Of a stretch of DNA of 32,380 nucleotides, positions 4,707 through 32,134 are shown piece after piece. A program made the position numbers and the translations under genes. The first letter of the stretch is position 1, and each line of letters starts with the position of its first letter. The stretch lies in the NCBI GenBank assembly GCA_030691585.1, contig JAUYEC010000160.1, positions 1 to 32,380 of the forward strand, read 5' to 3'. The stretch is from Candidatus Omnitrophota bacterium (GTDB taxonomy: Bacteria > Omnitrophota > Gorgyraeia > Gygaellales > Profunditerraquicolaceae). The notes below the pieces were generated by a model, which saw nothing but the letters and a program-made list of their open reading frames with translations, searched no databases and had not been told where the DNA came from.

Positions 4707-4780
4707 TGGGCCCACAGGGACTCGAACCCCGGACCAAGTGATTATGAGTCACCTGCTCTGACCGACTGAGCTATGGGCCC
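4707..4780 (-). tRNA. tRNA-Ile2 (anticodon CAT, lysidine type)
   Basis: GGGCCCATAGCTCAGTCGGTCAGAGCAGGTGACTCATAATCACTTGGTCCGGGGTTCGAGTCCCTGTGGGCCCA. The body (AGAGCAG..GACTCATAAT..TTGGTC) resembles ileX-type tRNAs and lacks initiator features. Confidence 0.88.
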
Positions 4781-5914
4781 CGAATATCCAACCTCTCTAC
4801 TTTCAATAACTTCTGATAAACTCAAATTTAAGTTATTTTCAGGATTTACCATTTCCTGCATATTTCCTGCATATTTAGGCGTAGATTTTTGTAAGTTTTG
4901 CCCTAAAATATCAACTGCGCGCTTCTTATGATCCGGAGATAAGTGACTATATCTTAGCGTCATCTGTATTGATTTATGCCCAAGTAATTCCCGCACCGTA
5001 TTTAGATCAACTCCGCACATTACCAATTGCGATGCAAAGGTATGCCGCAAGTCGTGAAAATGAAAATTTATAATACCAGAATTTGTCAAGGCGGTCAAGA
5101 AGCTTTTCTTGATATCTCCGAACGGCTCACCAGTTGTATTGCAAAAAATATAAGGACTTTGAGGGTGCTTTCTCACCTTAATTAAGGTAGTCCTGACTTC
5201 CGAATTCATGGGTACTTCTCTTTTTTCGCCATTCTTTGTATCATGAAGATAAATTATATCCCGCCTAAAATCAAAATCATGCCATTTTAGTTTTAGTATT
5301 TCGCTTTTGCGCATACCTGTGTTGAGAGCGACTATTACGATCGGCTTCAGGTAATTATGACAATTGGCTAATAACGTCTCGATTTCTTCTTTTTCAAGAT
5401 AACGTAGACGTTGATTATTTTCCCTGAATAATTTTACCTGTTTGACAGGATTATCTTGCGCCATTTTCCATTCAATCGCACGGTTAAATAGAGATTTCAA
5501 ACAAGCCAAATCCCTATTTATCGTTGCAGGAGCTATGCTTTTATTTTTTTGAACCCTTTTGATTCTTTCCGATTTATACTTCTCGATATCTAAAGGGGTT
5601 ATTTCGTGCAAATGTTTCCCAGAAAAATATTTTTTCAAGTTATTTATCTTCTTCTCATCAGATGTTTTCCAAGTTTTATTATTCGGTTTACAATGAAACT
5701 CCAAATACTGATCAGCGAAATCTTCGAACTTTATCTTTTCTTCTTTTTTAACATCAAGATATCTATTCTCGGCAATTTCGGTTAATCTTTTGTGCAAAAC
5801 CTTCTCGGCCAATTTCTTATCTTTGCCGATAGTTTCGGTCTTCCTTCTGCCATTAACAGAATAAACAATATAATAGGTTGTTCCTTTTTTACCTTTATAT
5901 TCGTATACCGGCAT
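4742..5914 (-). CDS. Phage-type tyrosine recombinase/integrase
   Basis: Catalytic R (TGMRKSEI), HxxR (HDLRHTFAS), H (LLGH) and Y (RYSH) are all intact; N-terminal arm-binding-like and SAM-like segments. The last 12 sense codons and the stop lie in the tRNA. Confidence 0.95.
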   Translation of the reverse strand: MPVYEYKGKKGTTYYIVYSVNGRRKTETIGKDKKLAEKVLHKRLTEIAENRYLDVKKEEKIKFEDFADQYLEFHCKPNNKTWKTSDEKKINNLKKYFSGKHLHEITPLDIEKYKSERIKRVQKNKSIAPATINRDLACLKSLFNRAIEWKMAQDNPVKQVKLFRENNQRLRYLEKEEIETLLANCHNYLKPIVIVALNTGMRKSEILKLKWHDFDFRRDIIYLHDTKNGEKREVPMNSEVRTTLIKVRKHPQSPYIFCNTTGEPFGDIKKSFLTALTNSGIINFHFHDLRHTFASQLVMCGVDLNTVRELLGHKSIQMTLRYSHLSPDHKKRAVDILGQNLQKSTPKYAGNMQEMVNPENNLNLSLSEVIESREVGYSGPIAQSVRAGDS

Positions 5915-6460: not shown

Positions 6461-6593
6461 TTATCCACAGTATCCACAGCCTTTATTTACTACTACTGTT
6501 TCTTTATAATGTTTCTTTGTATTATGGCAGGTGGTCTACAGGCCACTATTTTCCGGTGGTCTGCTGACCACTACCCAGTGGTCTGGAGTCTCT
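6461..6593. promoter_or_regulatory. Putative replication origin: DnaA boxes, AT-rich tract, palindromic iterons
   Basis: TTATCCACA (6461-6469) and GTATCCACA (6470-6478); AT-rich 6481-6525; three GTGGTC-N4-GACCAC-like repeats starting at 6531, 6556 and 6578. Confidence 0.65.
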
Positions 6594-6929
6594 TACATGT
6601 GAAGTTTTCCACAACTGCCATGACGTGTATTCTTTGTTTAAACCGATCCTATTTTCCCATCCTGTCTTGTCTTTAAACAACACATTATCTAAAATCAGCT
6701 TATTAATCCTTCTTTTAATGTAACGAATATCTATTCTTAATTTTCTAGCTACTGAACCATAGCTTATAAAAGATTTGCTTGTTTTCCAGCCGTAAGTCCT
6801 CCTGATGACTAACAGAATGATTCTTAATTCCGCGCAGGTAAAGGGATATTCGATTATGGCCTCAAATAGCTCGTTAGCTATTCTGGTATATCCGTTTTCT
6901 AATTGAGGATTCGACTTGAGGTCATTCAT
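6546..6929 (-). CDS. Phage replication initiator, lambda O-like N-terminal domain (short, possibly truncated)
   Basis: PQLENGYTRIANELFEA...ELRIILLVIRRTYGW...IGLNKEYTSW is characteristic of the Phage_rep_O N-terminus. ATG at 6929 is preferred over TTG at 6938. Confidence 0.82.
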   Translation of the reverse strand: MNDLKSNPQLENGYTRIANELFEAIIEYPFTCAELRIILLVIRRTYGWKTSKSFISYGSVARKLRIDIRYIKRRINKLILDNVLFKDKTGWENRIGLNKEYTSWQLWKTSHVRDSRPLGSGQQTTGK

Positions 6930-6936
6930 GGCAAAC

Positions 6937-6978
6937 AAAAAAGGCTGGCCTTCCGAAAGTTGATTCGGAAAACCAGCC
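6937..6978 (-). terminator. Intrinsic terminator-like hairpin directly upstream of the rep start codon
   Basis: Minus strand GGCTGGTTTTCCGAA-tcaact-TTCGGAAGGCCAGCC followed by TTTTTT. Confidence 0.75.
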
Positions 6979-7137: not shown

Positions 7138-10100
7138 TTAATTATTAGTTTCTTTTTCGTACAAGTCTTCAATATAGACCGTAGAGGTAACCAGCGAGCT
7201 GTTGGTAACGGTTTTTTTCACTCTTTTACCATCACCATCATAGATGAACTCAGTTTTGCTGCCATCTTTGGTGATACTGACCGGCCTGTTTTCAGGGTCA
7301 TATGCAATTGACCTGCCGGCGCCGGACGTCATATTGCCGCAAGTATCATAGGCGTAGCTGTTTTTACCGTCATTAGTTAGAGCGTGGATTTTTGAAGCGT
7401 GATAACTCTGCCCCGCGCCGTTTGCCTTCATAATATTTCCGATGGCGTTATATTCATAAGTATTCCCATCCCCCGAGACCAACCTGTCCAGGCCGTCATA
7501 AGCATAATCCTTGGTATAAGAATGCGCCGCATCCGTAATCTTAACTATATTGCCAACCTTATCGTAGGCGTAAGTTAAATCCTGCAGAGATCCGGTTAAA
7601 ATCGATTTTAGCCTTTGATTTTCAGGGTAATAGCCATACCTGGTAACAAAATTGTTTGAAAAAGTAACCGCGGCCGGCTGCGTTGAAGCATTATAATCCG
7701 CGCTTAGCACAAAGTTATCGATAGATTCAGGCAATCCGGCATTGTTATAAGTAAATTTTACTTCTTTTAAGTTGGGAAAAATAATGGACTTGATCCTGTT
7801 CATCGCATCGTAACTCCACTGCACGACGTAAGGATTATCGGCCCCGACAGTCTTGTCTAATTCCGTAACCCTACCCTCTAAATCATATTGCCACTGGCTG
7901 CTGCCTGAAAGGTCTTTCATACCGGTGCGCCTGCCTATGCCGTTTGTAGAAGAGGCTTCGTCATAACTATACGTAACTTCTATTCCCGGCTGACCGGAAT
8001 AATCCTTGGTTATCATCCGGTTAAGCGCGTCATAAGTAAAATTAACGACCTGTCCGGAGCCATCGACAAATTTCACGAGATTACCGTTATTATCATAATC
8101 ATAATTCCACGTACCCAAATCGGGGTCAACCATCTTTGTCCTGCGCCTTAAGGTATCATATGAAAATTCAAATTTATTTCCAGGATGGTCGGTGATCTGA
8201 ACAAGGTCATCAAGGCAATCATATTTATATGTGGTAGAATATTCTTCTGAACCGTTTTTTTCCTTCACTTGCGACAATAAACCGTAAGCGTCCTTTATGA
8301 AGGTTTTTTGATGACCGTTTTCATCGGTTATGGCCGTGTTCCAGCCGTCATAGGAATTATTGATCGTGCCTGAATCGGGCTTAATAATTGAAGTTATCCT
8401 GCCGATCGCGTCATAGGAGTATTGAGTCCATCCAGGCGCCCCATCGGCTAAGTGATAAGTTTTCCTTAAGCCGCCGTCTTTAAAATAAGGCAGGGAAGCT
8501 TTGTCTATCTCTCCCCTTGGATTATAAACGGTAGTAATGTAACTATAAATATTGGCGTCTTTACCTTCCCTGCCGGTCTGAATCACCCTTTCGAAACCGT
8601 CCAGAATATCAATTTTTATAAGGTGGTTGGCAGTGCCGCTAACTTCTGTGGTGCGGGTCAAAATATAATTCGACCCCGCTCCGTTGATCCCGTATTCATA
8701 AGATTCCGAGCCATACGTTGAATACAAATCATATGGCCCGGAGATTTTTGTTTTCCTGCCGAAACCGTCATATTCAAAACCGGTTTCATTTCCATTAGGA
8801 TCAATTTTGGATTTTATCTGCCCGAAAAGGCCTTTTGGATCGGAAGACATATAATAGGAAGTTTTTTCAGGCTGGCCTTTGGCGTTGGTCAATAAAACAG
8901 GAAAAGCATGATACGTTGAATCATAATCCACCTTCGTAACATTTCCGTTGGCGTCGGTTTTAGTAATTTCGTTGCCGTATGCGTCATAGGCCGACGTAGC
9001 CTGGATATAATTATTCATTGTATTAAGATATCTTTTTATCGCGGTTAAGTCTCCTTTTACGGGCGCATTGGAATAGCTGGAATTATTATCGTAAAAATAT
9101 TGCGTCTCGGACGCGGGCGTGCCTGTCCCGGTTAAACCGGAAAACACGCGTTCACGGGAAGGCAAATTTAGCAACCACGAGGATGTATTTAAGCTATAGT
9201 CGGTGAAAATGACCCTTTCATCCCCGGGAACATCACTATCTCCGTAAAATAATGTTTTTATCACATTGCCGTAATCATCATATTCATATGCGGTCCTGCG
9301 ACATTTAGAATCCGTATATTGATCGGACTGAATAAGCGGAGTAAAATATGGGGCAGAACTATCTTCTTTATAGGTATTCAAGATTCTGGTAATTGCATTT
9401 TCCTGCCGCTCAATCTTGCCCAACCTGGAATCATCCTGGTGATAATAGAGATGTGTAATGTTGTTTAGAGGATCAGTTACCTGCACATGACGGAAGCCCC
9501 TAAAGATCTTATTCTGCGTATCATATGAGCCGCCGTCATAAGCATAAGTAGTTATGCCTGCGATAGAGACGCCTATCCCAGGATCAGAAACAGAAGAATA
9601 CAACACCGGCAGGGAAAAAGGAAAGGTTGAGCCGCCGCAGTCTCTAGGATTCTTGTAATAAAAACTGGTTTTCCCGCCATAGCGGTTAATTACCTCTTTT
9701 AAAAGGTCGTCCTGGGCGGCTTCTAATCTGCAAGGAGTAAAGCTGTTTTCTTTTACCTTAAGACAGTCAACGACCCCATCCTTATCGCAATCAAAAAATA
9801 ACACATCTCTATCCTCGCTTTTCCAGGGGGGTTGGCTATTGAGCTGAAGCATCGGCCCAAAACCCTGACCATTACCCAAATGGCATTTATAGACCAACCC
9901 TCCTCCCCATTGATCATATTTACCGCAGACAAGGTCGGCAAAACCGTCTTTATTAATGTCAAAAACCTTTGTCGAAAGCCAAAACAAATTAAAACCGGCA
10001 TCAGAAGAGATATCTCTAATCTGGCCGTCCCATCCTGAACCATCGGCCAGCATATAATGCAGCTCAAAACCGGTATTTTGCGTAGCGCCGGCTTTACTAC

Positions 10101-11634
10101 AGAGAAAATCCGCCAGGCCGTCTCCGTTAAGGTCTGCAAGGCAACCCACATGGTTATAACACTGACCGTTATAACAGTGCCCGTTTTTGCCGAGTTGAAA
10201 ATAAAAAGGCAGGTTAGTAAAAAGCCGCACCGGATCATTCCAACCGCTGCCGTTGCCATAACAGACAGAGACATTTACCGAACTCATCGTAGCTCCCACA
10301 ATCTTTGCCTGGACAATATCTATGTATTTATCATTATTAACAAAGGCCAGCTGATTATGGGCATAGATCAAACTTAAATCATTGTTCCAGGCCTGGGTGT
10401 TCTCAATAACTACAGGCCCATTCCATCCGTCTCCGGTATTAAACCATACCTGATAATGCGCTGAGCCGGGCCCGATAGTAGGATTACTCCTGATAATGTC
10501 ATCCCGGCCGTCTCCGTTAACGTCTCCCAACTGAATATTGGCGGTGCCGGAATTGCTATATGGGAACCCGTAAGTCTTCACCGGGCCCCAGCCTCCATCT
10601 TGCCACAAGGCCACCTGGATTGTGGAATTAGAGATTTTGAATAAGTCGGGAAAACCGTCGCCGTTGATATCGCCCACGCGCGTATATGCGTCGCTGATAT
10701 CCCAGGGAGCGGGAGAGGCGAGGCGGCGCGCGGAATCAAAATTAATCGTGTTGGCGGCATAATTAAATTCCGCTATTTTAAGGCGGCTGTTTGCGTCCTT
10801 TGCGATCTCATCAACTTGCTTGAGCAGGCTTTTTGAGCTATTTGGGCTGTAAGTATAGGTAAAATCATACCTCTTATATAAAGAGCCTTCTACCAAGACA
10901 TCAATATAATCCACCCTGTAATTATATCTTACCGTCCTGCCGGAAGCGTTATCCGGATAAGTATCACTTCGGCCCTCATAATGGAATTCGACCGTCCTAT
11001 ATTTATTTAAATCGTTTCCTTTTGTGTATGTGATTGTTTCTATATAGCCGGTATAATCGCTTGAGATATAAGATATTTCCATAAAATTCCCATGCGTATC
11101 GGTTACCTTAGTAAGATAATAATTAAGCTCTCCGGCATTATAGTTATATTCGTATTTTGTGCCGTCTCTGTCTATTATCGCCCATTTACTGCCGGATTTA
11201 GTTATCTTTAAGTAAGACTCAAGCTTAGTGCGGAATTCTCCGTTACCGATGCCAACCAATTCAGATACAGTGTCATTCAACTGCAGGATAAATATATCGC
11301 TGTCGTTAAAATCCGGACGCTTAAGCCTAAGGCTGCGGGTAATCCTGCCTAAATCGATATTCCAGCCGACTCCTGCGCTGCTATTACCGTTGCCGGAAAA
11401 ATAACGCAAGACCAGCTGCGGCTGTATTCCGCTCGTGCCCGGGGCAACCTCCAAAGGAATAGAATAAGTTACTGCGCCGCTAAACTTATTATGCTGGAAA
11501 TTCTCTATTCCCACTGAACCCATTAACGAACCCAGGGCGGGAAAGGTATCGGTAGTGACGTCGGCGCGGGAGGAAAACGCCACAGTCAAGATTGAAAAAA
11601 TCAGAATAAAAATAATTCGCATCATTTTCGCCAT
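7138..11634 (-). CDS. Secreted SpvB / FG-GAP(VCBS) / TcdB-mid / YD-repeat protein lacking the RHS core ('shell')
   Basis: Signal peptide (MMRIIFILIFSILTVAFSSRA); SpvB-like SGAVTYSIPLEVAPG...GVGWNI; DxNGDGxxD repeats; FRGFRHV; many YD repeats; ends at YIEDLYEKETNN with no DPxG core. Confidence 0.9.
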   Translation of the reverse strand: MAKMMRIIFILIFSILTVAFSSRADVTTDTFPALGSLMGSVGIENFQHNKFSGAVTYSIPLEVAPGTSGIQPQLVLRYFSGNGNSSAGVGWNIDLGRITRSLRLKRPDFNDSDIFILQLNDTVSELVGIGNGEFRTKLESYLKITKSGSKWAIIDRDGTKYEYNYNAGELNYYLTKVTDTHGNFMEISYISSDYTGYIETITYTKGNDLNKYRTVEFHYEGRSDTYPDNASGRTVRYNYRVDYIDVLVEGSLYKRYDFTYTYSPNSSKSLLKQVDEIAKDANSRLKIAEFNYAANTINFDSARRLASPAPWDISDAYTRVGDINGDGFPDLFKISNSTIQVALWQDGGWGPVKTYGFPYSNSGTANIQLGDVNGDGRDDIIRSNPTIGPGSAHYQVWFNTGDGWNGPVVIENTQAWNNDLSLIYAHNQLAFVNNDKYIDIVQAKIVGATMSSVNVSVCYGNGSGWNDPVRLFTNLPFYFQLGKNGHCYNGQCYNHVGCLADLNGDGLADFLCSKAGATQNTGFELHYMLADGSGWDGQIRDISSDAGFNLFWLSTKVFDINKDGFADLVCGKYDQWGGGLVYKCHLGNGQGFGPMLQLNSQPPWKSEDRDVLFFDCDKDGVVDCLKVKENSFTPCRLEAAQDDLLKEVINRYGGKTSFYYKNPRDCGGSTFPFSLPVLYSSVSDPGIGVSIAGITTYAYDGGSYDTQNKIFRGFRHVQVTDPLNNITHLYYHQDDSRLGKIERQENAITRILNTYKEDSSAPYFTPLIQSDQYTDSKCRRTAYEYDDYGNVIKTLFYGDSDVPGDERVIFTDYSLNTSSWLLNLPSRERVFSGLTGTGTPASETQYFYDNNSSYSNAPVKGDLTAIKRYLNTMNNYIQATSAYDAYGNEITKTDANGNVTKVDYDSTYHAFPVLLTNAKGQPEKTSYYMSSDPKGLFGQIKSKIDPNGNETGFEYDGFGRKTKISGPYDLYSTYGSESYEYGINGAGSNYILTRTTEVSGTANHLIKIDILDGFERVIQTGREGKDANIYSYITTVYNPRGEIDKASLPYFKDGGLRKTYHLADGAPGWTQYSYDAIGRITSIIKPDSGTINNSYDGWNTAITDENGHQKTFIKDAYGLLSQVKEKNGSEEYSTTYKYDCLDDLVQITDHPGNKFEFSYDTLRRRTKMVDPDLGTWNYDYDNNGNLVKFVDGSGQVVNFTYDALNRMITKDYSGQPGIEVTYSYDEASSTNGIGRRTGMKDLSGSSQWQYDLEGRVTELDKTVGADNPYVVQWSYDAMNRIKSIIFPNLKEVKFTYNNAGLPESIDNFVLSADYNASTQPAAVTFSNNFVTRYGYYPENQRLKSILTGSLQDLTYAYDKVGNIVKITDAAHSYTKDYAYDGLDRLVSGDGNTYEYNAIGNIMKANGAGQSYHASKIHALTNDGKNSYAYDTCGNMTSGAGRSIAYDPENRPVSITKDGSKTEFIYDGDGKRVKKTVTNSSLVTSTVYIEDLYEKETNN

Positions 11635-22582: not shown

Positions 22583-24277
22583 TTATTGGACTACCCGTAA
22601 AACTTCTTCGGGCGTAGTAAGGCCGGCTAAAACTTTTTCCCAGCCGTCCTGCTTCAATGTCCTCATACCCAACGCGACCGCCTTGTGTTTCATCGCGTCG
22701 GAAGACGTTTTTTGTAAAATCATTTTTTTTATCTCCTCATCGACCTGCAGGATTTCATAAATGCCCGTTCTATTCATATACCCCGTATTATTACACACTT
22801 TACAGCCTTTGCCGCGATAGCCTGTCTGTGCCGCCCCGCCGTCTTTGCCCTCCGGCATACCGAACTTTTGGCATATTTCTTCAGGCAGGCGGTATTCTTC
22901 CTTGCAGTTATTGCATATCAACCTCACCAGCCTCTGGGCAATAAATGCCTCTACCGAAGAGGCAATCAAATACGGTTCGATGCCGATGTCAACCAAACGG
23001 GTGACGCCGCTTACGGCGTCGTTGGTATGAAGCGTGGAAAAAACCAGGTGGCCGGTAAGCGCGGTCTGGATGGTAATATCGGCAGTCTCATAATCCCTGA
23101 CCTCTCCCACCATCATTATATCCGGGTCGTGCCGAAGCATGCTTCTAAGCACTACGGAAAAAGTAAGGTTTATGTTCGGGTTAACCTGCGTCTGTGTAAC
23201 TCCCTTGAGTTCATACTCAACGGGGTCTTCGATGGTAACTATTTTCCTCTGCCGCGTATTAAGACGGCTTAAAAAACTGTATAAAGTCGTAGTTTTACCG
23301 CTTCCGGTGGGCCCGGTTACAAAAATTATCCCGTGAGGCCTTTCCAGCAATTGCTCCAAAACCGCCAGCTCTTTTTGCGACATACCCAAATTAGCTATAT
23401 CGAAAAGCATGGTCGTCGGCAGGATCCTGATCACGATATTTTCACCATAAAGCGCCGGCATTACCGATACCCGCAATTCATATTCTTTATCTCCTATCCC
23501 GACCTTTGCCCTTCCATCCTGCGGGATCCTTCTTTCCACGATATCCAATGAGGACATAATTTTGATCCTTGAGACAATTGGAAGATATAAGTGCTTTATG
23601 GCGTCGGGGACGGAAGTATCATAAAGGATGCCGTCGATTCTGTAACGCAAGCTCAATTCTTTGCGGAAAATTTCTATGTGTATATCCGTCGCCCGGTCAT
23701 TGATTGCCTGCTGGAGGATCTGGTTAACCAGCCTTATTACCGAGACGTCCGCGGACATCTTTTCCAAATCTTCAACCTTGTCATTTTTTTCTTCCGGCTT
23801 TTCTATGCCATATTCCGCCTGATTGGACAACAGCCTCTCAATCGTGTCGGCGCCTACGCCGTAATATTTTCGCGCGGCCTCCATTATGTCCGCGGACACC
23901 GCCAATACTTTTTCCACCCTCAATCCCGAATGCGCCTCAAGGTCATCAACCGGCCAGGCGTCAAGGGGATTAGATACCGCGATGGTAAGCACATTGTCCG
24001 TTATATTTACCGGCATAATCTTATAGTGCCAGATAAATTTAGCGGGCACGGCCTGGACGGCCTTATCGTCGATACTTACGTTCTTTAATTCCAGGAAAGG
24101 GATACCCTGCTGCTCGGCAAGGATCTGCAGCATCCTTCTTTCGGTAACAAACCCCATGCCTATCAAAACTTCGCCGAGCAGTTTTTTCGTCTTCTGCTGC
24201 TCCTTAAGCGCCAGTTCCAATTCCCGCGGAGTTATTATTCTTTTTTCTATAAGTAATTCACCCAACCGCAACGTCAT
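22583..24277 (-). CDS. gspE: T2SS/T4P assembly ATPase GspE/PilB
   Basis: Walker A GPTGSGKTTT, TIEDPVEY, RHDPDIMMVGEVRD, TGHLVFSTLH, tetracysteine motif; MshEN-like RLGELL N-terminus. Confidence 0.95.
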   Translation of the reverse strand: MTLRLGELLIEKRIITPRELELALKEQQKTKKLLGEVLIGMGFVTERRMLQILAEQQGIPFLELKNVSIDDKAVQAVPAKFIWHYKIMPVNITDNVLTIAVSNPLDAWPVDDLEAHSGLRVEKVLAVSADIMEAARKYYGVGADTIERLLSNQAEYGIEKPEEKNDKVEDLEKMSADVSVIRLVNQILQQAINDRATDIHIEIFRKELSLRYRIDGILYDTSVPDAIKHLYLPIVSRIKIMSSLDIVERRIPQDGRAKVGIGDKEYELRVSVMPALYGENIVIRILPTTMLFDIANLGMSQKELAVLEQLLERPHGIIFVTGPTGSGKTTTLYSFLSRLNTRQRKIVTIEDPVEYELKGVTQTQVNPNINLTFSVVLRSMLRHDPDIMMVGEVRDYETADITIQTALTGHLVFSTLHTNDAVSGVTRLVDIGIEPYLIASSVEAFIAQRLVRLICNNCKEEYRLPEEICQKFGMPEGKDGGAAQTGYRGKGCKVCNNTGYMNRTGIYEILQVDEEIKKMILQKTSSDAMKHKAVALGMRTLKQDGWEKVLAGLTTPEEVLRVVQ

Positions 24278-24284
24278 CGCTTCC

Positions 24285-25715
<1,431 letters not shown>

Positions 25716-26558
25716 CTAACTTCTCTTTCTCAATAACTGCGACGAAAATGTTTCACGCATACCCCTATCTATCAACTCATGCCGGCTGCGGAAATATTGA
25801 AACCTTATCAGTCTCTCCCTTTGCAGCAAAACCTGGTGGCTTTCTTCCAAATGCACCGTCCGGGCGGAAAATTCCGATAGTTTACTGTCCTCAAACACCT
25901 CAAATAATTTCTCCACAACCCAGGTGCCGACCAAATACTCGATTATCGCGCTTAAAGATGATTCTATTATAATGTTTTCTTCCGCGATATTTTCTCTTTT
26001 TTTAAACAGTTCACTGCAAGGAAGGATGCTTAGCGCTTCTATCTTATGGACGGTAAAAGAAACCGGCTTGGGATAAAAAAGCATCAACCTGGAAAACTTT
26101 CCGGCCAGCCCCTCTTTCATGATAAAACTTTTCAGGTTCAAAGCGGCCTCATAGCCCCCGTCGCTTGTGATTCCCGGAAATCCGGTGAAACTGCGGCCCA
26201 TGCCCTTAAGGTAGGCGGCCCCGCGATCGCCTATTATGATAAGTTCGGCATTTTCCGCGCCGGAATATTCTAAAGCGGTATTTATCACTTTTGTATTCAA
26301 CCCTCCCATAAACCCTTCATCAGAAGTGATCATAATAATACCGAGATTGCCGCCGCCTCCGGCAAAGGGATGCTGGACGGAGCTGAAATCTATCAACTGG
26401 AAAAATCCCTCAAAGGCATCCATAAATTTGGCGAAACGCTCTCTCCTCTTTTCAAGCTGCCTGAATTGCGCAGAGGCTATGCCTTTTAATACCTCCAATA
26501 ACTGCGTCAATTCCGTATTCAACTCCAGTTCATTTTTTAACCTTTGCGCGGATTGCAT
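25716..26558 (-). CDS. atpG: F1 ATPase gamma subunit (divergent)
   Basis: ITSDEGFMGGLN, IIGDRG and SEFSAR motifs; located between alpha and beta. Confidence 0.85.
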   Translation of the reverse strand: MQSAQRLKNELELNTELTQLLEVLKGIASAQFRQLEKRRERFAKFMDAFEGFFQLIDFSSVQHPFAGGGGNLGIIMITSDEGFMGGLNTKVINTALEYSGAENAELIIIGDRGAAYLKGMGRSFTGFPGITSDGGYEAALNLKSFIMKEGLAGKFSRLMLFYPKPVSFTVHKIEALSILPCSELFKKRENIAEENIIIESSLSAIIEYLVGTWVVEKLFEVFEDSKLSEFSARTVHLEESHQVLLQRERLIRFQYFRSRHELIDRGMRETFSSQLLRKRS

Positions 26559-26564
26559 ATTTCT

Positions 26565-28034
26565 TTATTCCATCCCCTTTAGATAACCGACAAACAAGCT
26601 GTTCAATACCTGTTCTATCTCAAGCGTGAGTTCTTTGGCCGATTCCAATTTTTTTGCCAATTCCGGCTCACGCGCGAGGATATATTGCCAGATTTCATTT
26701 TTAAACCTGTTGATCTTTGGCGGTTCCAATTGATCCAATATTTTTCTGTCCAAGGCATAAAGCAAAACAATTAATTCCGCGATGGCGGCCGGTTTGTTTT
26801 TATCCTGATTAAATATAGCGGTAATTACCTCTCCCCGGCGGATTTTGAACGCCACGTCCTGGCTTAAACTCGATTTTAGTTTAGTCAGGCGTAAAAGTTC
26901 TTTAAATTGCGTATATTCCAGGCGGATTCCGCCGCTTAACCTCTTTAAAACAGGATTTTGCGTCTTGCTTCCGATAATCGATACCGACATTGAAAAATCC
27001 ACTGCCGGTTTAAAGCCCTCGGCAAACATAGATGAATTCAAATAGATTTGCCCATCTGTCATTGAGATAAGATTAGACGGAATAAACCCCGTTACATCCT
27101 GCTGTAAGGTATCCGCGATAGGGAAGAAACTCATTGAGCCTGAACCCAGCTCCCGGCTAAGCCTGCCGGCGCGCTCCATAAGCTGGGAATGAATATAATA
27201 AATATCTCCGGGGTAAGCTTCTCTTCCCGGCGGCCTTTCCAGCAATAAGGAAATCTGGCGGTATGCCCAGGCATGCTTGGTCATATCATCGAACACCACT
27301 AAAACATCCCTGCCGTTATAAAAAAAATATTCCCCTAAGGCGGCCGCGGCATAAGGAGCCAGATACTGTTCTGCCGTCGTTGCCGAAGCGGGGGCGGCGA
27401 CAACCAGCGTGTAATCCAGCGCGCCCCCGAATTTAAGAAGCTGTGTTACTTTTAACAGCGAAGAAAAACTCTTGCCGATACAGCAATAAATACAAACAAC
27501 CCCCTTGTCTCTTTGGTTGAGTATGGCGTCTACCGCTATCGTTGTTTTACCTGTCATCCTGTCCCCAATAATCAGCTGGCGCTGCCCCTTGGAAAGCGGG
27601 ACAATAGCGTCTATGATCCTGGTGCCTGTTTCTAAACACGATAGGGCGCCGGAGCGCTCCATAGTGCCGGGCGCTTCTCTAAAAACAGGATAGTATTCAA
27701 CTGGGGGATTAACGGGGCCTTTGCCGTCTACAGGCTCGGCCAGGGCATTGACAATCCTGCCTAAAAAACCTTCGCCAACGGGTATCCTGAATTCTTCCGG
27801 CAAGCTATAGACTTCCTGGCCAAGCCTCACGCCGGCCTCATCGCCCAGGATCAAAACCGAGACTTCGTCTTCCCAAAAACCCACAATCATGCCTTTCGGG
27901 CCGCCGGAAAAAGTTACCAACTGGCCGTTCATAAAACCGCTAAGCCCGGATACGGCGGCAATGATTTTTTTAACCGACTTGACCCTGCCGGCCTCTTTTA
28001 TCCTGATTGCCGGTGAGTTTAATGTGTCCTGCAT
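26565..28034 (-). CDS. atpA: F1 ATPase alpha subunit paralog 2 (arginine finger lost)
   Basis: GQRQLIIGDRMTGKT, PPGREAYPGD, ISMTDGQIYL; SVSIIG in place of SVSRxG. Confidence 0.9.
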   Translation of the reverse strand: MQDTLNSPAIRIKEAGRVKSVKKIIAAVSGLSGFMNGQLVTFSGGPKGMIVGFWEDEVSVLILGDEAGVRLGQEVYSLPEEFRIPVGEGFLGRIVNALAEPVDGKGPVNPPVEYYPVFREAPGTMERSGALSCLETGTRIIDAIVPLSKGQRQLIIGDRMTGKTTIAVDAILNQRDKGVVCIYCCIGKSFSSLLKVTQLLKFGGALDYTLVVAAPASATTAEQYLAPYAAAALGEYFFYNGRDVLVVFDDMTKHAWAYRQISLLLERPPGREAYPGDIYYIHSQLMERAGRLSRELGSGSMSFFPIADTLQQDVTGFIPSNLISMTDGQIYLNSSMFAEGFKPAVDFSMSVSIIGSKTQNPVLKRLSGGIRLEYTQFKELLRLTKLKSSLSQDVAFKIRRGEVITAIFNQDKNKPAAIAELIVLLYALDRKILDQLEPPKINRFKNEIWQYILAREPELAKKLESAKELTLEIEQVLNSLFVGYLKGME

Positions 28035-28052
28035 ATGGGAATTTCCGGTATG

Positions 28053-29522
28053 TCAAGAGGCTGGAGAATATACTTCTTCGTTTTTAAAGAAAGCAATCAA
28101 GCACCCATCCAATTCTTTTGTGATTCCAGGGGTTAATTTCTTTTCATTAAACAAATCATCCATCATTGCCGGATAGTTATCTTCGGCAAATTGCAGGATA
28201 TTCTTTTTGAAATATTCTATTTGCGGTTTTGAAAAAACTTCAAGGACGTCCCGCCTTAAAGCATAAAGCAAAATCAGTTCTTCCTCCAAAGAGCAAGGTT
28301 TGGTCTTCTCTTGAATAAAGAGGTGCGTTATTACCTCACCATGCTTTAAGCGCTGGCCCACTTCTTCCGATACGCCTGTTTTAAACCTGGTAACATTCAA
28401 CAGATCAAGGTATTGTATGTATTCCTGGCGCAGCATCGAACTTAATTCCTTCATTGCCGCACACTGCACCTTGTTGCCTATCCTTGAAACGGAAAGCCCC
28501 AGGTCTATTGCCGGCTTGAACCCTGAATTGAATAAGCCCGTGTTTAAATAAATCTGGCCGTCCGTCATCGAAACAAGATTCGATGGGATATAACCGGTTA
28601 TATCGCCCTGAAGAGTATCAACTATGGGGAAAAAAGTCATTGAGCCGTTTTTTAATTCAGGATTAAGCTTTCCCGCCCTTTCCATAAGTTGCGAGTGTAA
28701 ATAGAAAATATCCCCGGGATAGGCGTCCCTTCCCGGAGAACGCTCTAAGAGCAATGAAATCTGGCGGTATGCCCAGGCATGCTTGGTCAGGTCGTCAAAA
28801 ACCACAAATACGTCTTTGCCGTTATGCATAAAATATTCGCCGAGCGTGCAGGCGGTATAGGGCGCCAGGTACTGCTCGCCTACCGGGCAGGAGGACGCCG
28901 CGGAAACCACTATTGTATACTTCATAGCATCGTTATCTTTTAATGTTTCAATGATTTTCTCAAGAGAAGCCTGGAATCGGCCTATGCAGCAATATATACA
29001 AATGACGTCCTTGCTTTTCTGATTAATTATGGCGTCTACGCATATGCTTGATTTTCCAATCATCCTGTCGCCGATGATTAATTCACGCTGGCCGCGGCCA
29101 ATAGGGATGGTTGCGTCAATAATCAAAATCCCCGTCTCAAAGGCTTCGGCCAAAGGGGCGCGCTCAAGCACACCCGGGGCATCCCGGAAAAGAGGATAGT
29201 ATTCGCCGCCCGACAAGATAATGCCCTTTCCATCCGACGGCTCGGCCAGGGCATTGACAACCCTGCCTAAAAAACCCTCACCCACCGGAACCCTGAACTC
29301 CTCCATCCTGCTATAAACGGTGTTGCCGACCTTTACATCATCTACTTTACCCAAGAGAAGAACCAACGCCTCCTCTTGCGCGAAGCCCATTACTATTGCC
29401 CTGGTATTGACGGTTATATCCAGCAACTGGCCGTTCATACAGCTTGAGAGTCCCGCGACCTTAGCAACGCTTTTTTTAATCTCTTTTATCCGGCCGGTTT
29501 CCCGGACCAACACCATGCTCAT
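28053..29522 (-). CDS. atpA: F1 ATPase alpha subunit paralog 1
   Basis: GRGQRELIIGDRMIGKS, PGRDAYPGDIFYLHS, SMTDGQIYL, LSVSRIG. Confidence 0.92.
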   Translation of the reverse strand: MSMVLVRETGRIKEIKKSVAKVAGLSSCMNGQLLDITVNTRAIVMGFAQEEALVLLLGKVDDVKVGNTVYSRMEEFRVPVGEGFLGRVVNALAEPSDGKGIILSGGEYYPLFRDAPGVLERAPLAEAFETGILIIDATIPIGRGQRELIIGDRMIGKSSICVDAIINQKSKDVICIYCCIGRFQASLEKIIETLKDNDAMKYTIVVSAASSCPVGEQYLAPYTACTLGEYFMHNGKDVFVVFDDLTKHAWAYRQISLLLERSPGRDAYPGDIFYLHSQLMERAGKLNPELKNGSMTFFPIVDTLQGDITGYIPSNLVSMTDGQIYLNTGLFNSGFKPAIDLGLSVSRIGNKVQCAAMKELSSMLRQEYIQYLDLLNVTRFKTGVSEEVGQRLKHGEVITHLFIQEKTKPCSLEEELILLYALRRDVLEVFSKPQIEYFKKNILQFAEDNYPAMMDDLFNEKKLTPGITKELDGCLIAFFKNEEVYSPAS

Positions 29523-30238
29523 TTCCTAAGCGCCTCGCAGGCTTCATTAAGTTTTCCGCGCAAGCTGCCGTCAATAATAAGACCTCCTAATTTTATTATG
29601 ACGCCCGCGATAATACTTGCATCCGCCGTCTCCTCCAACGTTATATTCCTTCCGGTTTTGGCGGAAAGCGTGGATGCTATTTGCTCTTTTTCGGCTTTAG
29701 TAATCTCTACGGCTATAATCAATTCACCTTTATCGGTATTCACATTTAACTTTGACGCCTCGATCATGCCTATTTCGTCCAGGGCGTCTTGCAGGACCGC
29801 GGTGCGCAGTATCAACATATTCTTAGAGGTAAGTATTTTCTGGATCAACGCCAGAGATTGCTCCACGCACTTTTCCTGCAGCCCGGCTTCGATCTCCTCC
29901 CTGATTTTTTCCTTTGTATTCAGGGCCTGTTTAATCATCCGGTCGGCTTCCTGTTTTGCCTTGTTCAAAGCTTCTTCTTTTATCTTATCCGATTGTTCTT
30001 TTGCTTCGGCCCTTAGTCTATTCGCCTCTTTTTCCGCGGCTTCAACTTTATCCCGGTATTTTTTCTCCGCCTCCTCCATCTTTGCCGCCAGTTCCCGCGC
30101 TTTTTCGGCATTTTCCCGGCTAAGCTGTTGTAACCTCTTAGTCTCCACAAAAGAGGCGGAATACATAATTTTATACAGGACAAAAACCAGCGCCGCAAAA
30201 GTCAGCACCTGAATTATGATAAGTTGAATTATCAGCAT
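29519..30238 (-). CDS. atpF: Peripheral stalk b-delta fusion subunit
   Basis: Q..TFAALVFVLYK TM helix, Ala/Glu/Lys coiled coil, C-terminal delta-like DASIIAGVIIKLGGLIIDGSLRGKL. Confidence 0.85.
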   Translation of the reverse strand: MLIIQLIIIQVLTFAALVFVLYKIMYSASFVETKRLQQLSRENAEKARELAAKMEEAEKKYRDKVEAAEKEANRLRAEAKEQSDKIKEEALNKAKQEADRMIKQALNTKEKIREEIEAGLQEKCVEQSLALIQKILTSKNMLILRTAVLQDALDEIGMIEASKLNVNTDKGELIIAVEITKAEKEQIASTLSAKTGRNITLEETADASIIAGVIIKLGGLIIDGSLRGKLNEACEALRK

Positions 30239-30265: not shown

Positions 30266-30478
30266 CTATTTTCCAAATAACTGGAAGAGCACAAGCATTC
30301 CTATAATCGCGATCGCTTCAGCAAAAATAAGCGCGATTATCATAGCCAGCAGGATCTTCGGAGCTGAAGAAGGATTCCTTCCTAAGGCCCGGATGCTGGC
30401 AAATCCGATTGAGGCGATTACCGCCGAAGGCCCCAGGATAGTCACAAACATTACGAGTATTATGATAAAATTACGCAT
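30266..30478 (-). CDS. atpE: Fo c subunit
   Basis: Two TM helices, polar loop GRNP, ion-binding Glu in FAEAIAI. Confidence 0.9.
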   Translation of the reverse strand: MRNFIIILVMFVTILGPSAVIASIGFASIRALGRNPSSAPKILLAMIIALIFAEAIAIIGMLVLFQLFGK

Positions 30479-30708
30479 TATTCTTCCACCAGCGCCACAA
30501 GCTCATTTCTGTGCATTTTTACTACGCCTTTAGTGATAGCGACATATTTATTCCAATCTATTATGATTTCCCCCCCGCGTAAAAGGCTGATAATGGGCCT
30601 GTGGAAATCCAAAACTTCAAATTCACCCTCATTGCCGGGTAAAAAAACGCTGTTTGCCTGGCCTTCGTAAATCGTGCGTCTTGGATTAATTATGGTTACT
30701 TTGAACAT
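30478..30708 (-). CDS. atpC: F1 epsilon subunit, N-terminal beta-sandwich only
   Basis: VTIINP...YEGQANSVFLPGNEGEFEVL..H.P.ISLL..G; ends at 76 aa. Confidence 0.85.
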   Translation of the reverse strand: MFKVTIINPRRTIYEGQANSVFLPGNEGEFEVLDFHRPIISLLRGGEIIIDWNKYVAITKGVVKMHRNELVALVEE

Positions 30709-30709
30709 A

Positions 30710-32134
30710 TCACTCGTTAACCTTTTCTCGTTTTTTTCCCGCGGCCGCTTTAATCTGCGCCCACCAGAGGATAAAAAACAAAAAACTCACCATCGCCAGG
30801 AACCCGATAATTATCCAGATGATCTTCCAGCTGGTCGTCACATTGGGCGCCCTGCCGCGGAACATGGATTTTCCCACCAGTTCCATACCCATTGCGCCCC
30901 GCAAAACGCCTTCGGGTTTCGGCGCTCCGCCTGCTACAAACCCGACGCTTCCACCTGCCTGGATAACCATTTTCTCCAGTTTTGCAACGGCTATGGAGAC
31001 TTCATCGAATTTTATAAGGTTGGAGCGATAATTAGCGATATGCCTATCCACGCTCATATCGGTAATATTCTGATTAGCGTTGATATCATTTAAAGCGGCA
31101 ATGATTTTGTTCATCAAGGATTTTGCCGGCAGTTTATATTTCGATTCCGCCAAGACGCCCATCAATTTTTCCGTGTGCGCCGTGACCGCGTCAATGCCCT
31201 GCTCAGGTATTACCCATATATCTTTTACCGTAACCGCAAATTTTTTCTTTTCATCCGGCGCGAGCATAACCGCGTCTTTATAGACGTATTGCAGGCCTTT
31301 CTGGTAATCATAAGCTATCTCCAGGCCGCCGCTGTCAATTATATGCTCCCGCCTTAGCTCTGAAGGAAAGTAATACTTTACGGGAACGGGCTTCTCTTCG
31401 TCTGAAGGATTGGATACTGTTATATCAAATTTTATAGTGCCGGACCCCGCGTGGCCGGGCACGGGATTCTTTGCTTTCGCCTGATCGCCTGCGGGAGAGA
31501 ATTCTCCTTTCGGCGCGCTGACGGAAGAAACTTCCGGCGTGCCGGCCGGCAAAGCCGCCGGCCCGCTGACTTCCATTACCAAATCTTCCAAGTCACCGAT
31601 ATCCTTCTTTACCTCTTTTAAAATACCGCTGTTTGTCTCATAATTGGATATCTTCTGCTCGACATCCATCCCCGGCGAATTCTGGAATTCGCTTATCTTA
31701 TCAAGCCCGGCAGTGATACTCTCGGTTAAAGTCTTTGCCTGCGGGTAATATTCCGACTTCTTCAAGACGTCAAGAATCTCCTGCGCGCGTTTTTTTAATG
31801 ATCTGACCTCTTCAATAGGTATAGTCCAGATATCCCGGATTACCAGCTCCAGCGTAACTGTTTCCTGGGGCTTAAGCATGACGTCCTGATAGGCATAATA
31901 TAGCGATCTTTCAAAATCATATTCCACCCTGAAACCGCCCTTATCCGTTATATCTTCGGGCGCGACACCTTTGGGCAGATAAGTCTTTACCGGCAGCGTT
32001 CTTGTTTCGGTATCCGAGGGATTCGCGACAATCATTTTAAGTTTTACGTCGTCGGCAAAAGACAGGCCGTAAGCCGTTAACGCACAAATCGAAAGTAATA
32101 AAATAATATAGAACTTCTTCATAGCATGCGACAC
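30710..32134 (-). CDS. Hypothetical exported protein with two ~160-aa internal repeats and a C-terminal TM anchor
   Basis: Signal peptide (MKKFYIILLLSICALTAYGLSFA, likely start 32122); repeats V.NPSD...PVK.Y.P...GG....YD...DIW.IP; TM IIWIIIGFLAMVSFLFFILWW. Confidence 0.8.
   Translation of the reverse strand: MSHAMKKFYIILLLSICALTAYGLSFADDVKLKMIVANPSDTETRTLPVKTYLPKGVAPEDITDKGGFRVEYDFERSLYYAYQDVMLKPQETVTLELVIRDIWTIPIEEVRSLKKRAQEILDVLKKSEYYPQAKTLTESITAGLDKISEFQNSPGMDVEQKISNYETNSGILKEVKKDIGDLEDLVMEVSGPAALPAGTPEVSSVSAPKGEFSPAGDQAKAKNPVPGHAGSGTIKFDITVSNPSDEEKPVPVKYYFPSELRREHIIDSGGLEIAYDYQKGLQYVYKDAVMLAPDEKKKFAVTVKDIWVIPEQGIDAVTAHTEKLMGVLAESKYKLPAKSLMNKIIAALNDINANQNITDMSVDRHIANYRSNLIKFDEVSIAVAKLEKMVIQAGGSVGFVAGGAPKPEGVLRGAMGMELVGKSMFRGRAPNVTTSWKIIWIIIGFLAMVSFLFFILWWAQIKAAAGKKREKVNE

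Follow-up and report, generated by a model that had tools for sequence, protein, structure and literature searches.

The 32,380-nt stretch of Candidatus Omnitrophota DNA analyzed here (contig JAUYEC010000160.1; hereafter the window) carries on its minus strand two adjacent genes for the alpha subunit of an F-type ATPase, and only one of the two encoded proteins has an arginine finger, the residue on which rapid ATP hydrolysis at the adjacent site depends. alpha-1 (28053-29522, minus strand, 489 aa) keeps the finger Arg, and alpha-2 (26565-28034, minus strand, 489 aa) has an Ile at the aligned position. Sequence comparison gives good support for alpha-2 as a functional, selectively maintained F1 alpha paralogue whose defining change is the Arg to Ile loss of the finger, because the loss of Arg is conserved in the orthologues and purifying selection on alpha-2 is as strong as on alpha-1. 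The presence of a finger-less second alpha suggests a naturally lopsided motor head.

alpha-1 and alpha-2 were found to be 54% identical (260/480) in an ungapped alignment. The three alpha/beta ATPase Pfam domains (PF02874, PF00006 and PF00306) are present in both, and both exceeded the cut-off of the NCBIfam atpA equivalog model TIGR00962 (484.45 bits), with 523.5 bits for alpha-1 and 516.4 bits for alpha-2. The finger segment reads DLGLSVSRIGNK in alpha-1 (LSVSRIG; Arg347, codon AGG at 28482-28484, minus strand) and DFSMSVSIIGSK in alpha-2 (MSVSIIG; Ile353, codon ATT at 26976-26978, minus strand). The residue of solved F1 alpha chains that aligns with Ile353 is the Arg of SVSRVG, and the finger pattern SVSR[VI]G was observed in alpha-1 and not in alpha-2. 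The P-loop Lys is retained in both alphas (GDRMIGKSS in alpha-1, GDRMTGKTT in alpha-2), as is the Walker B sequence VVFDD. With the P-loop and the Walker B Asp of the non-catalytic nucleotide site present, both alphas are predicted to bind nucleotide. A first-pass annotation of this DNA had described tandem full-length alphas that differ at the finger and share the P-loop Lys, and this description was confirmed. The Gln of the canonical IGQK motif, the counterpart of the catalytic Glu of beta, is replaced in both proteins, by Arg in alpha-1 (CIGR, residue 182) and by Lys in alpha-2 (CIGK, residue 188). Lys occupies this column in 100% of the alpha-2 sequences, and Arg or Lys in other pilus-linked alphas. 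A Lys in alpha at the non-catalytic interface is also highlighted in passages of a study of the Mycoplasma G1-ATPase (PMC11864180).

Both alphas are short at the N-terminus, which had likewise been proposed in the first-pass annotation. Residue 10 of alpha-2 aligns with residue 23 of the solved alpha chain 2qe7_A, and residue 4 of alpha-1 with residue 10 of alpha-2, corresponding to a shortening of about 13 residues in alpha-2 and about 19 in alpha-1. The beta-barrel domain starts at residue 13 in alpha-2 and at residue 6 in alpha-1, and a canonical alpha of a related genome has about 28 residues ahead of the barrel. Since the two proteins start about 13 to about 19 residues later than the solved alpha, the N-terminal delta-binding helix is missing in both.

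The loss of the finger is not private to the window. Among the best 120 homologues of alpha-2 in a protein search, 37 had no Arg at the finger position (35 Ile and 2 Thr, the protein of the window included) and 83 had Arg. The Arg-bearing alphas P0038 and P0168 share 63.5% identity, and each comes from one contig of 8828 bp. Twenty-one related loci were collected from species genomes, of which nine have two alphas or an alpha-2; in these nine the second alpha has Ile (8/9) or Thr (1/9), and the first alpha has Arg wherever it is covered. A further 34 related loci came from metagenomes, with the finger site of the second alpha covered in 15. The second alpha has Ile in 14/15 and Thr in 1/15 and the first alpha has Arg in all 13 covered, counts that are not independent because some loci are the same DNA filed twice (e.g. 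L067 and L068). The conservation of the Arg loss across alpha-2 orthologues, for which the first-pass annotation had called, was thus observed in every two-alpha genome locus and in every metagenome locus with the site covered, and this also disposes of a private mutation or sequencing error, which it had named as an outcome that would undo its reading. According to the record titles, the two-alpha loci belong to Omnitrophota, Kiritimatiellia, Victivallales and one unclassified bacterium. They occur in two gene orders, epsilon-c-b/delta-alpha1-alpha2-gamma-beta and alpha1-alpha2-epsilon-c-b/delta-gamma-beta. The finger codons vary as well, with ATT or ATC (Ile) and ACG (Thr) in the second alpha and CGT, CGC, CGG, AGA or AGG in the first. 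The substitution is not due to chance, since all related two-alpha loci that were examined show it. Contigs from four DNA runs were also placed on the window. The bins with the Ile codon have depth in all four runs, one of which may be the source sample, and none of the 40 listed differences (40 of 142 rows, four DNA runs) falls at 26976-26978, which does not prove identity at these positions.

Selection on the two alphas was compared with that on other subunits. Against the closest relative, locus L063, dN/dS was 0.156 for alpha-2, 0.172 for alpha-1, 0.085 for beta and 0.052 for gamma. The corresponding values against L062 were 0.116 for alpha-2 and 0.078 for alpha-1, with dS saturated. Relaxed selection on alpha-2, the other outcome named in advance as fatal to a functional reading, was therefore not seen. 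Orthologues from different Omnitrophota genomes are similarly conserved for the two alphas, with identities of 71.2, 66.5 and 71.5% for alpha-2 and 70.7, 68.0 and 72.5% for alpha-1. In the Kiritimatiellia/Victivallales set alpha-2 evolves somewhat faster, with an identity of 71% versus 84% for alpha-1. alpha-2 is also the least conserved ATPase subunit between the window and L063 (95.1% identity versus 96-99% for the others), and its frame in L063 (5127-6671 of that locus) is 514 aa long, versus 489 aa in the window.

Across 251 aligned alphas, the finger position is R in 207, I in 41 and T in 3. Only two of about 489 columns are at least 85% conserved within the finger-less and within the Arg-bearing alphas and yet different between these groups, and the finger is one of the two. 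The other is a Phe to Tyr change in PGDI[FY]Y that is confined to the Omnitrophota branch. Changes common to the finger-less alphas of both operon orders cluster at or just after the finger (positions 348, 349, 356, 362 and 370), among them Gly348 to A, S, T or Q and Leu349 to Met. The catalytic-interface motifs SMTDGQIYL, GFKPA.D and SVS.IG are kept in alpha-2. alpha-1 of the two-alpha operons has changes of its own. PGRD is found for PGRE in 16/16 Omnitrophota and 4/4 type-B sequences, and the P-loop Thr is replaced by Ile or Leu in 3/4 alpha-1 sequences of two-alpha Omnitrophota operons. An Arg of the C-terminal domain (R394H) is His in 12/16 Omnitrophota alpha-1 and kept as Arg in 36/39 alpha-2, and type-B alpha-1 has Lys at another Arg in 3/4. 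A reciprocal loss of arginine in alpha-1 was considered as a lead; these changes are real but mild and lineage-specific, and nothing was built upon them.

In phylogenetic trees, the pilus-linked alphas constitute a clade next to, and separate from, the canonical alphas found in related genomes. The backbone of a quick mixture-model tree was unresolved. When all 18 finger-less rows were constrained to one clade, the likelihood was 12 units above that of the free quick tree, with an AU p value of 0.81. A separate IQ-TREE run under LG+G4+F recovered the finger-less alphas as one clade, as read after re-rooting, and grouped the alpha-1 sequences from the two operon orders, along with those of some single-alpha operons, in a second clade. 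The simplest reading of these trees would be one old duplication in which the finger was lost, with later losses of alpha-2 or transfer between operons. Some genomes were seen to hold two separate secretion-linked F-type ATPase operons (G001, contigs C14 and C61; G005, contigs C33 and C5). In G001, one operon has two alphas, and the other a single alpha and a different gene order.

The two alpha genes lie in a compact row on the minus strand, in the order 474-aa protein, epsilon, c, b-delta, alpha-1, alpha-2, gamma, beta, GspE-type ATPase and GspF. The gap between alpha-1 and alpha-2 is 18 nt and that between alpha-2 and gamma 6 nt, and in L064, L066 and L071 the alpha-1 and alpha-2 genes abut or overlap. 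Upstream of the alphas are the 474-aa protein (30710-32134), epsilon (30478-30708, 76 aa, the beta-sandwich domain only), c (30266-30478, 70 aa) and a b-delta fusion (29519-30238, 239 aa) with one N-terminal membrane helix and a 4-nt overlap with the start of alpha-1. Downstream are gamma (25716-26558, 280 aa, PF00231), which starts 6 nt past the alpha-2 stop and scores under the NCBIfam gamma cut-offs, and beta (24285-25700, 471 aa). The GspE-type ATPase gene (22583-24277) starts 7 nt past the beta stop and is followed by that of the GspF platform (21349-22581), both on the same strand. Beyond GspF are genes for a GspG pseudopilin, two minor pseudopilins, GspK, a PilM/PilN fusion and PilO/GspM. 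The same linkage of ATPase genes with GspE and GspF was seen in related loci.

Subunit a (PF00119) was not found in the genome of the window at E<=1 (the genome is 84% complete), nor in or upstream of the operon in about 55 related loci. In 3/5 related genomes, a separate contig encodes subunit a next to a canonical alpha and beta. Upstream of the related operons are genes for large proteins, most of them without a family match and some with adhesin-like repeats. On another contig of the window's genome are the A and B subunits of a V-type ATPase, and the sixth match to the alpha/beta family is Rho. Judged from gene content, the ATPase set of the window is not the ATP synthase of the cell, because subunit a was not found, the genes run straight into GspE and GspF, and a V-type ATPase, taken to be the genome's own ATP synthase, is encoded elsewhere. 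The first-pass annotation had implied a cellular ATP synthase, and this has to be abandoned. By the same gene content, the locus is a channel-less F-type ATPase embedded in an operon resembling those of type II secretion systems and type IV pili. Given these context facts, the asymmetry would belong to an ATP-burning accessory motor of a secretion or pilus machine. The public records name both genes 'F0F1 ATP synthase subunit alpha', which carries a risk of misannotation.

Compared with a complete F1Fo, the set has a competent beta, gamma, epsilon, c and a peripheral stalk, and lacks subunit a. beta exceeded the cut-off of the atpD equivalog model (579 bits versus 462.85) and keeps the catalytic Glu, the P-loop and Walker B; the YVPADD motif is present. 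From these motifs, beta looks catalytically competent. Where canonical beta has STSR, the beta of the window has SSSG, with Gly (Ser in relatives) in place of Arg. This column aligns with the finger of alpha and faces the nucleotide site of alpha, and the replacement of Arg is common to the motif-matched pilus-linked betas. Gamma, epsilon, c and b-delta were recognized by Pfam and were all below the NCBIfam cut-offs or without a match. The c subunit keeps its carboxylate (FAEAIA). For the c subunits of L011, L014, L072-L074, L080, L081, L084, L089 and L091, the comparison showed another residue at this site in several relatives with a single alpha (FALAVS, FAQTLA) and at one locus with two (FVTAIC). 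According to the first-pass annotation, b-delta retains only the C-terminal motif of delta. A BLASTP comparison with canonical delta agreed, as only residues 198-230 matched (delta 142-172); the Pfam OSCP match extends further (residues 89-235, profile 30-170), and for this reason it is likely, though not proven, that the entire delta N-domain has been lost. No Pfam or NCBIfam match was found for the 474-aa protein, which contains two internal repeats and is hydrophobic at both ends. In most related loci a homologue immediately precedes the ATPase genes; some of these homologues are giant, with about 2,500 aa in L014.

Non-respiratory F-type ATPases linked to type-4a pilus clusters are already in print for Omnitrophota (Seymour et al. 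2023, Nat Microbiol, PMC10066038). The window belongs to the 'symbiotic' locus type presented in the main-text passages of that paper, with which it shares the phylum, the linkage of an F-type ATPase with GspE and GspF and an alpha distinct from the respiratory one; its ATPase genes lie within 10 kb of a type-4 pilus/type II secretion cluster. No mention of a second alpha, of the arginine finger or of subunit a was found in these main-text passages. There, the alpha is grouped with the type 2 and type 3 ATPases of Mycoplasma, whereas both alphas of the window exceed the cut-off of the canonical atpA model and stay below those of the Mycoplasma models. With the type 2 and type 3 models (NF045863 and NF045936), alpha-1 and alpha-2 scored 406 and 386 bits for MMOB1660, below the cut-off of 600, and 312 and 296 bits for MSC_0619, below the cut-off of 520. 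The N-ATPase alpha model TIGR03324 gave 472 and 487 bits, also below its cut-off of 750.5. The gene order of N-ATPases is likewise different from that of the window.

With canonical AtpA (TIGR00962, 2qe7_A) the two alphas share the three domains, the P-loop, Walker B, the interface motifs and a score over the equivalog cut-off. They differ from it in the Ile for the finger Arg in alpha-2, in the lack of the N-terminal helix and the Lys or Arg for the IGQK Gln in both, and in the presence of two paralogues per operon with no adjoining gene for subunit a. The type 2 ATPase of Mycoplasma (the G1-ATPase gliding motor, PMC11864180) and the type 3 ATPase (MIB-MIP-linked, PMC12994834) are F1-derived heads recruited to a surface machine and not used for ATP synthesis. 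The G1-ATPase is similar to the set of the window in having an alpha without the N-terminal H1 helix and in the proposal of a b-delta-like protein, but its arginine finger is reported as conserved and it has one type of alpha (PMC11864180). Unlike the window, the type 2 and type 3 clusters have no c subunit. In the parts of the literature retrieved, including the main text of PMC10066038 and a 2026 preprint on the evolution of rotary ATPases, no finger-less alpha paralogue is described. The locus type can thus be regarded as known, and the conserved and, judging by its sequence, catalytically crippled alpha as undescribed in the literature found.

What the second alpha does to the motor can be approached through F1 mutants. 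According to passages of a review (PMC5380711), finger Ala mutants of Bacillus F1 rotate 10^3 to 10^4 times slower than normal and with about half the torque. These engineered enzymes are similar to the window's case in the loss of the alpha arginine finger, with very slow rotation and less torque as the result, but they are laboratory mutants with all three alphas changed (PMC5380711), whereas alpha-2 is a natural paralogue beside an intact alpha. By this analogy, it is somewhat more likely than not that the ring contains alpha-2 next to alpha-1 and that, of its three beta sites, one or two become slow or nucleotide-holding as a result, because alpha-2 keeps the nucleotide and beta-packing motifs and has lost the finger, and finger mutants rotate slowly. 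The gene set epsilon, c, b-delta, alpha-1, alpha-2, gamma and beta would be co-transcribed with the secretion- or pilus-like machine, and alpha-2 would fill one or two of the three alpha positions of the alpha/beta ring, with its nucleotide site and its contacts with beta preserved. Next to alpha-2, the catalytic site of beta would then have no transition-state arginine and, as in the Bacillus F1 mutants, should turn over 1,000 to 10,000 times more slowly. Such a head would be intrinsically asymmetric, with one or two fast sites and one or two mostly nucleotide-holding sites. The tight operon is in agreement with a mixed ring, and the intact catalytic motifs of beta and the intact Arg of alpha-1 indicate that hydrolysis still matters. 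The observed basis of the mixed ring is the conservation of the finger loss, the selection on alpha-2, a phylogeny compatible with a single origin, the operon context and the intact motifs of beta and alpha-1. The first-pass annotation had suggested a hetero-hexamer with a built-in dead site; of this, the functional finger-less alpha is now well supported, and the sharing of one ring by the two alphas, their ratio, a constant placement of alpha-2 with respect to the b-delta stalk and the slowed kinetics are inferred from the sequences.

In a more specific version, put forward only tentatively and considered unlikely as it stands, the ring would be a defined hetero-hexamer with alpha-2 always at the same position relative to the single b-delta stalk. 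The slow or nucleotide-holding site would then lie at a fixed angle, and the head would be an indexed stop-and-go rotary device instead of a free-running three-stroke motor, with the channel-less c-ring passing the steps on to the secretion or pilus machine.

Several points weigh against a mixed ring and its single origin. Co-assembly and the alpha-1:alpha-2 stoichiometry are read from the genes, and three alpha positions cannot be filled 1:1, yet the two genes look translationally coupled. Random mixing of alpha-1 and alpha-2 would give a heterogeneous population, and no docking surface specific to alpha-2 was identified in the sequence comparison. The closest relatives of alpha-1 include single-alpha operons, which shows that the motor works without alpha-2. 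Bootstrap support for the alpha-2 clade was weak, and convergent change after the loss of Arg could have pulled two lineages together. P0038 and P0168 may be a tandem pair with both fingers intact and are a candidate exception to the finger loss. The distribution was assessed in 150 other Omnitrophota genomes at least 80% complete, eight of them from the window's own family. An alpha match was obtained in 133 of the 150; no match was more than 56% identical to alpha-2, 53 unlisted matches being weaker, and no neighboring pair of alphas was seen among the matches listed. The two-alpha form is rare.

Other explanations for the finger-less alpha can be weighed on the same evidence. A sequencing or assembly error, or an incipient pseudogene, can practically be dismissed. 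No supporting point was found for it, the frame is full-length, dN/dS is 0.12-0.16, and dozens of independent assemblies carry the substitution, with differing codons for Ile; orthologue conservation, codon variety and dN/dS together refute this reading. A neutral loss would require that speed at each of the sites is of no importance in this motor or that another residue compensates, with alpha-2 being kept for some other purpose, e.g. binding of b-delta or the 474-aa protein, or dosage. F1 finger mutants still rotate, according to passages of the review (PMC5380711), residues conserved only in alpha-2 are found in the crown and the C-terminal domain (34, 70, 382, 383, 400, 420, 424 and 434), and both alphas are without the N-terminal helix that normally holds delta, all of which would fit. 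A neutral loss is nevertheless rather unlikely, as the finger is the single sharpest difference between the paralogues, Ile or Thr is fixed in 44/44 finger-less sequences with no reversion to Arg or Lys, and, close to the site, no basic residue was seen that is specific to alpha-2 and could compensate.

The two alphas could also be used in alternative heads without mixing, an active alpha-1/beta ring or a nearly inactive alpha-2/beta ring serving as a parked, braking or structural form. The adjacency of the genes in one operon, with no sign of separate regulation, makes this fairly improbable, even though both alphas keep all beta-packing motifs, the operon has a single beta and a single gamma gene, and sequence alone cannot separate such heads from mixing. 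In addition, a ring of three finger-less sites would be almost dead, judging from passages of PMC5380711, and strong selection on an inert ring needs a further assumption. Finally, the ring could be built of two beta, two alpha-1 and two alpha-2 in the order beta/alpha-1/alpha-2. The finger side of alpha-2 would then face the non-catalytic site of alpha-1, where the arginine is never needed, and the head would have two catalytic sites and two-fold symmetry. The resulting 1:1:1 ratio fits the tight operon, and alpha-1's own changes (P-loop Thr to Ile or Leu in 3/4, PGRD for PGRE, R394H) could be seen in its favor, but these are conservative and not concentrated at the nucleotide face. Such a ring is very unlikely because the finger-side beta-contact motifs of alpha-2 (SMTDGQIYL, GFKPA.D and SVS.IG) are almost unchanged. 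A swap of partner from beta to alpha predicts far more than the two strictly conserved yet different columns, and we know of no ring of this type.

Elsewhere in the window, a 1498-aa protein with SpvB, FG-GAP, TcdB mid/N and RHS-repeat domains is encoded at 7138-11634 (minus strand). Its gene adjoins those for a phage-type integrase and a RepO-like protein (4742-5914 and 6546-6938), and the G+C content falls to 0.34. Based on these features, the region looks like a mobile island with an RHS/Tc-like polymorphic toxin.

To our knowledge, every rotary F-, V- or A-type ATPase head uses three equivalent catalytic pairs, and asymmetric rotary heads have been made only by mutagenesis. If the reading given here is true, a natural and conserved finger-less alpha would be the first evolved 'hybrid' F1. 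It would offer a system for asking what benefit a dead or slow site brings to a rotary motor and how the position of a subunit is specified in a pseudo-symmetric ring, as well as what the channel-less F-type ATPases of secretion and pilus operons do mechanically.

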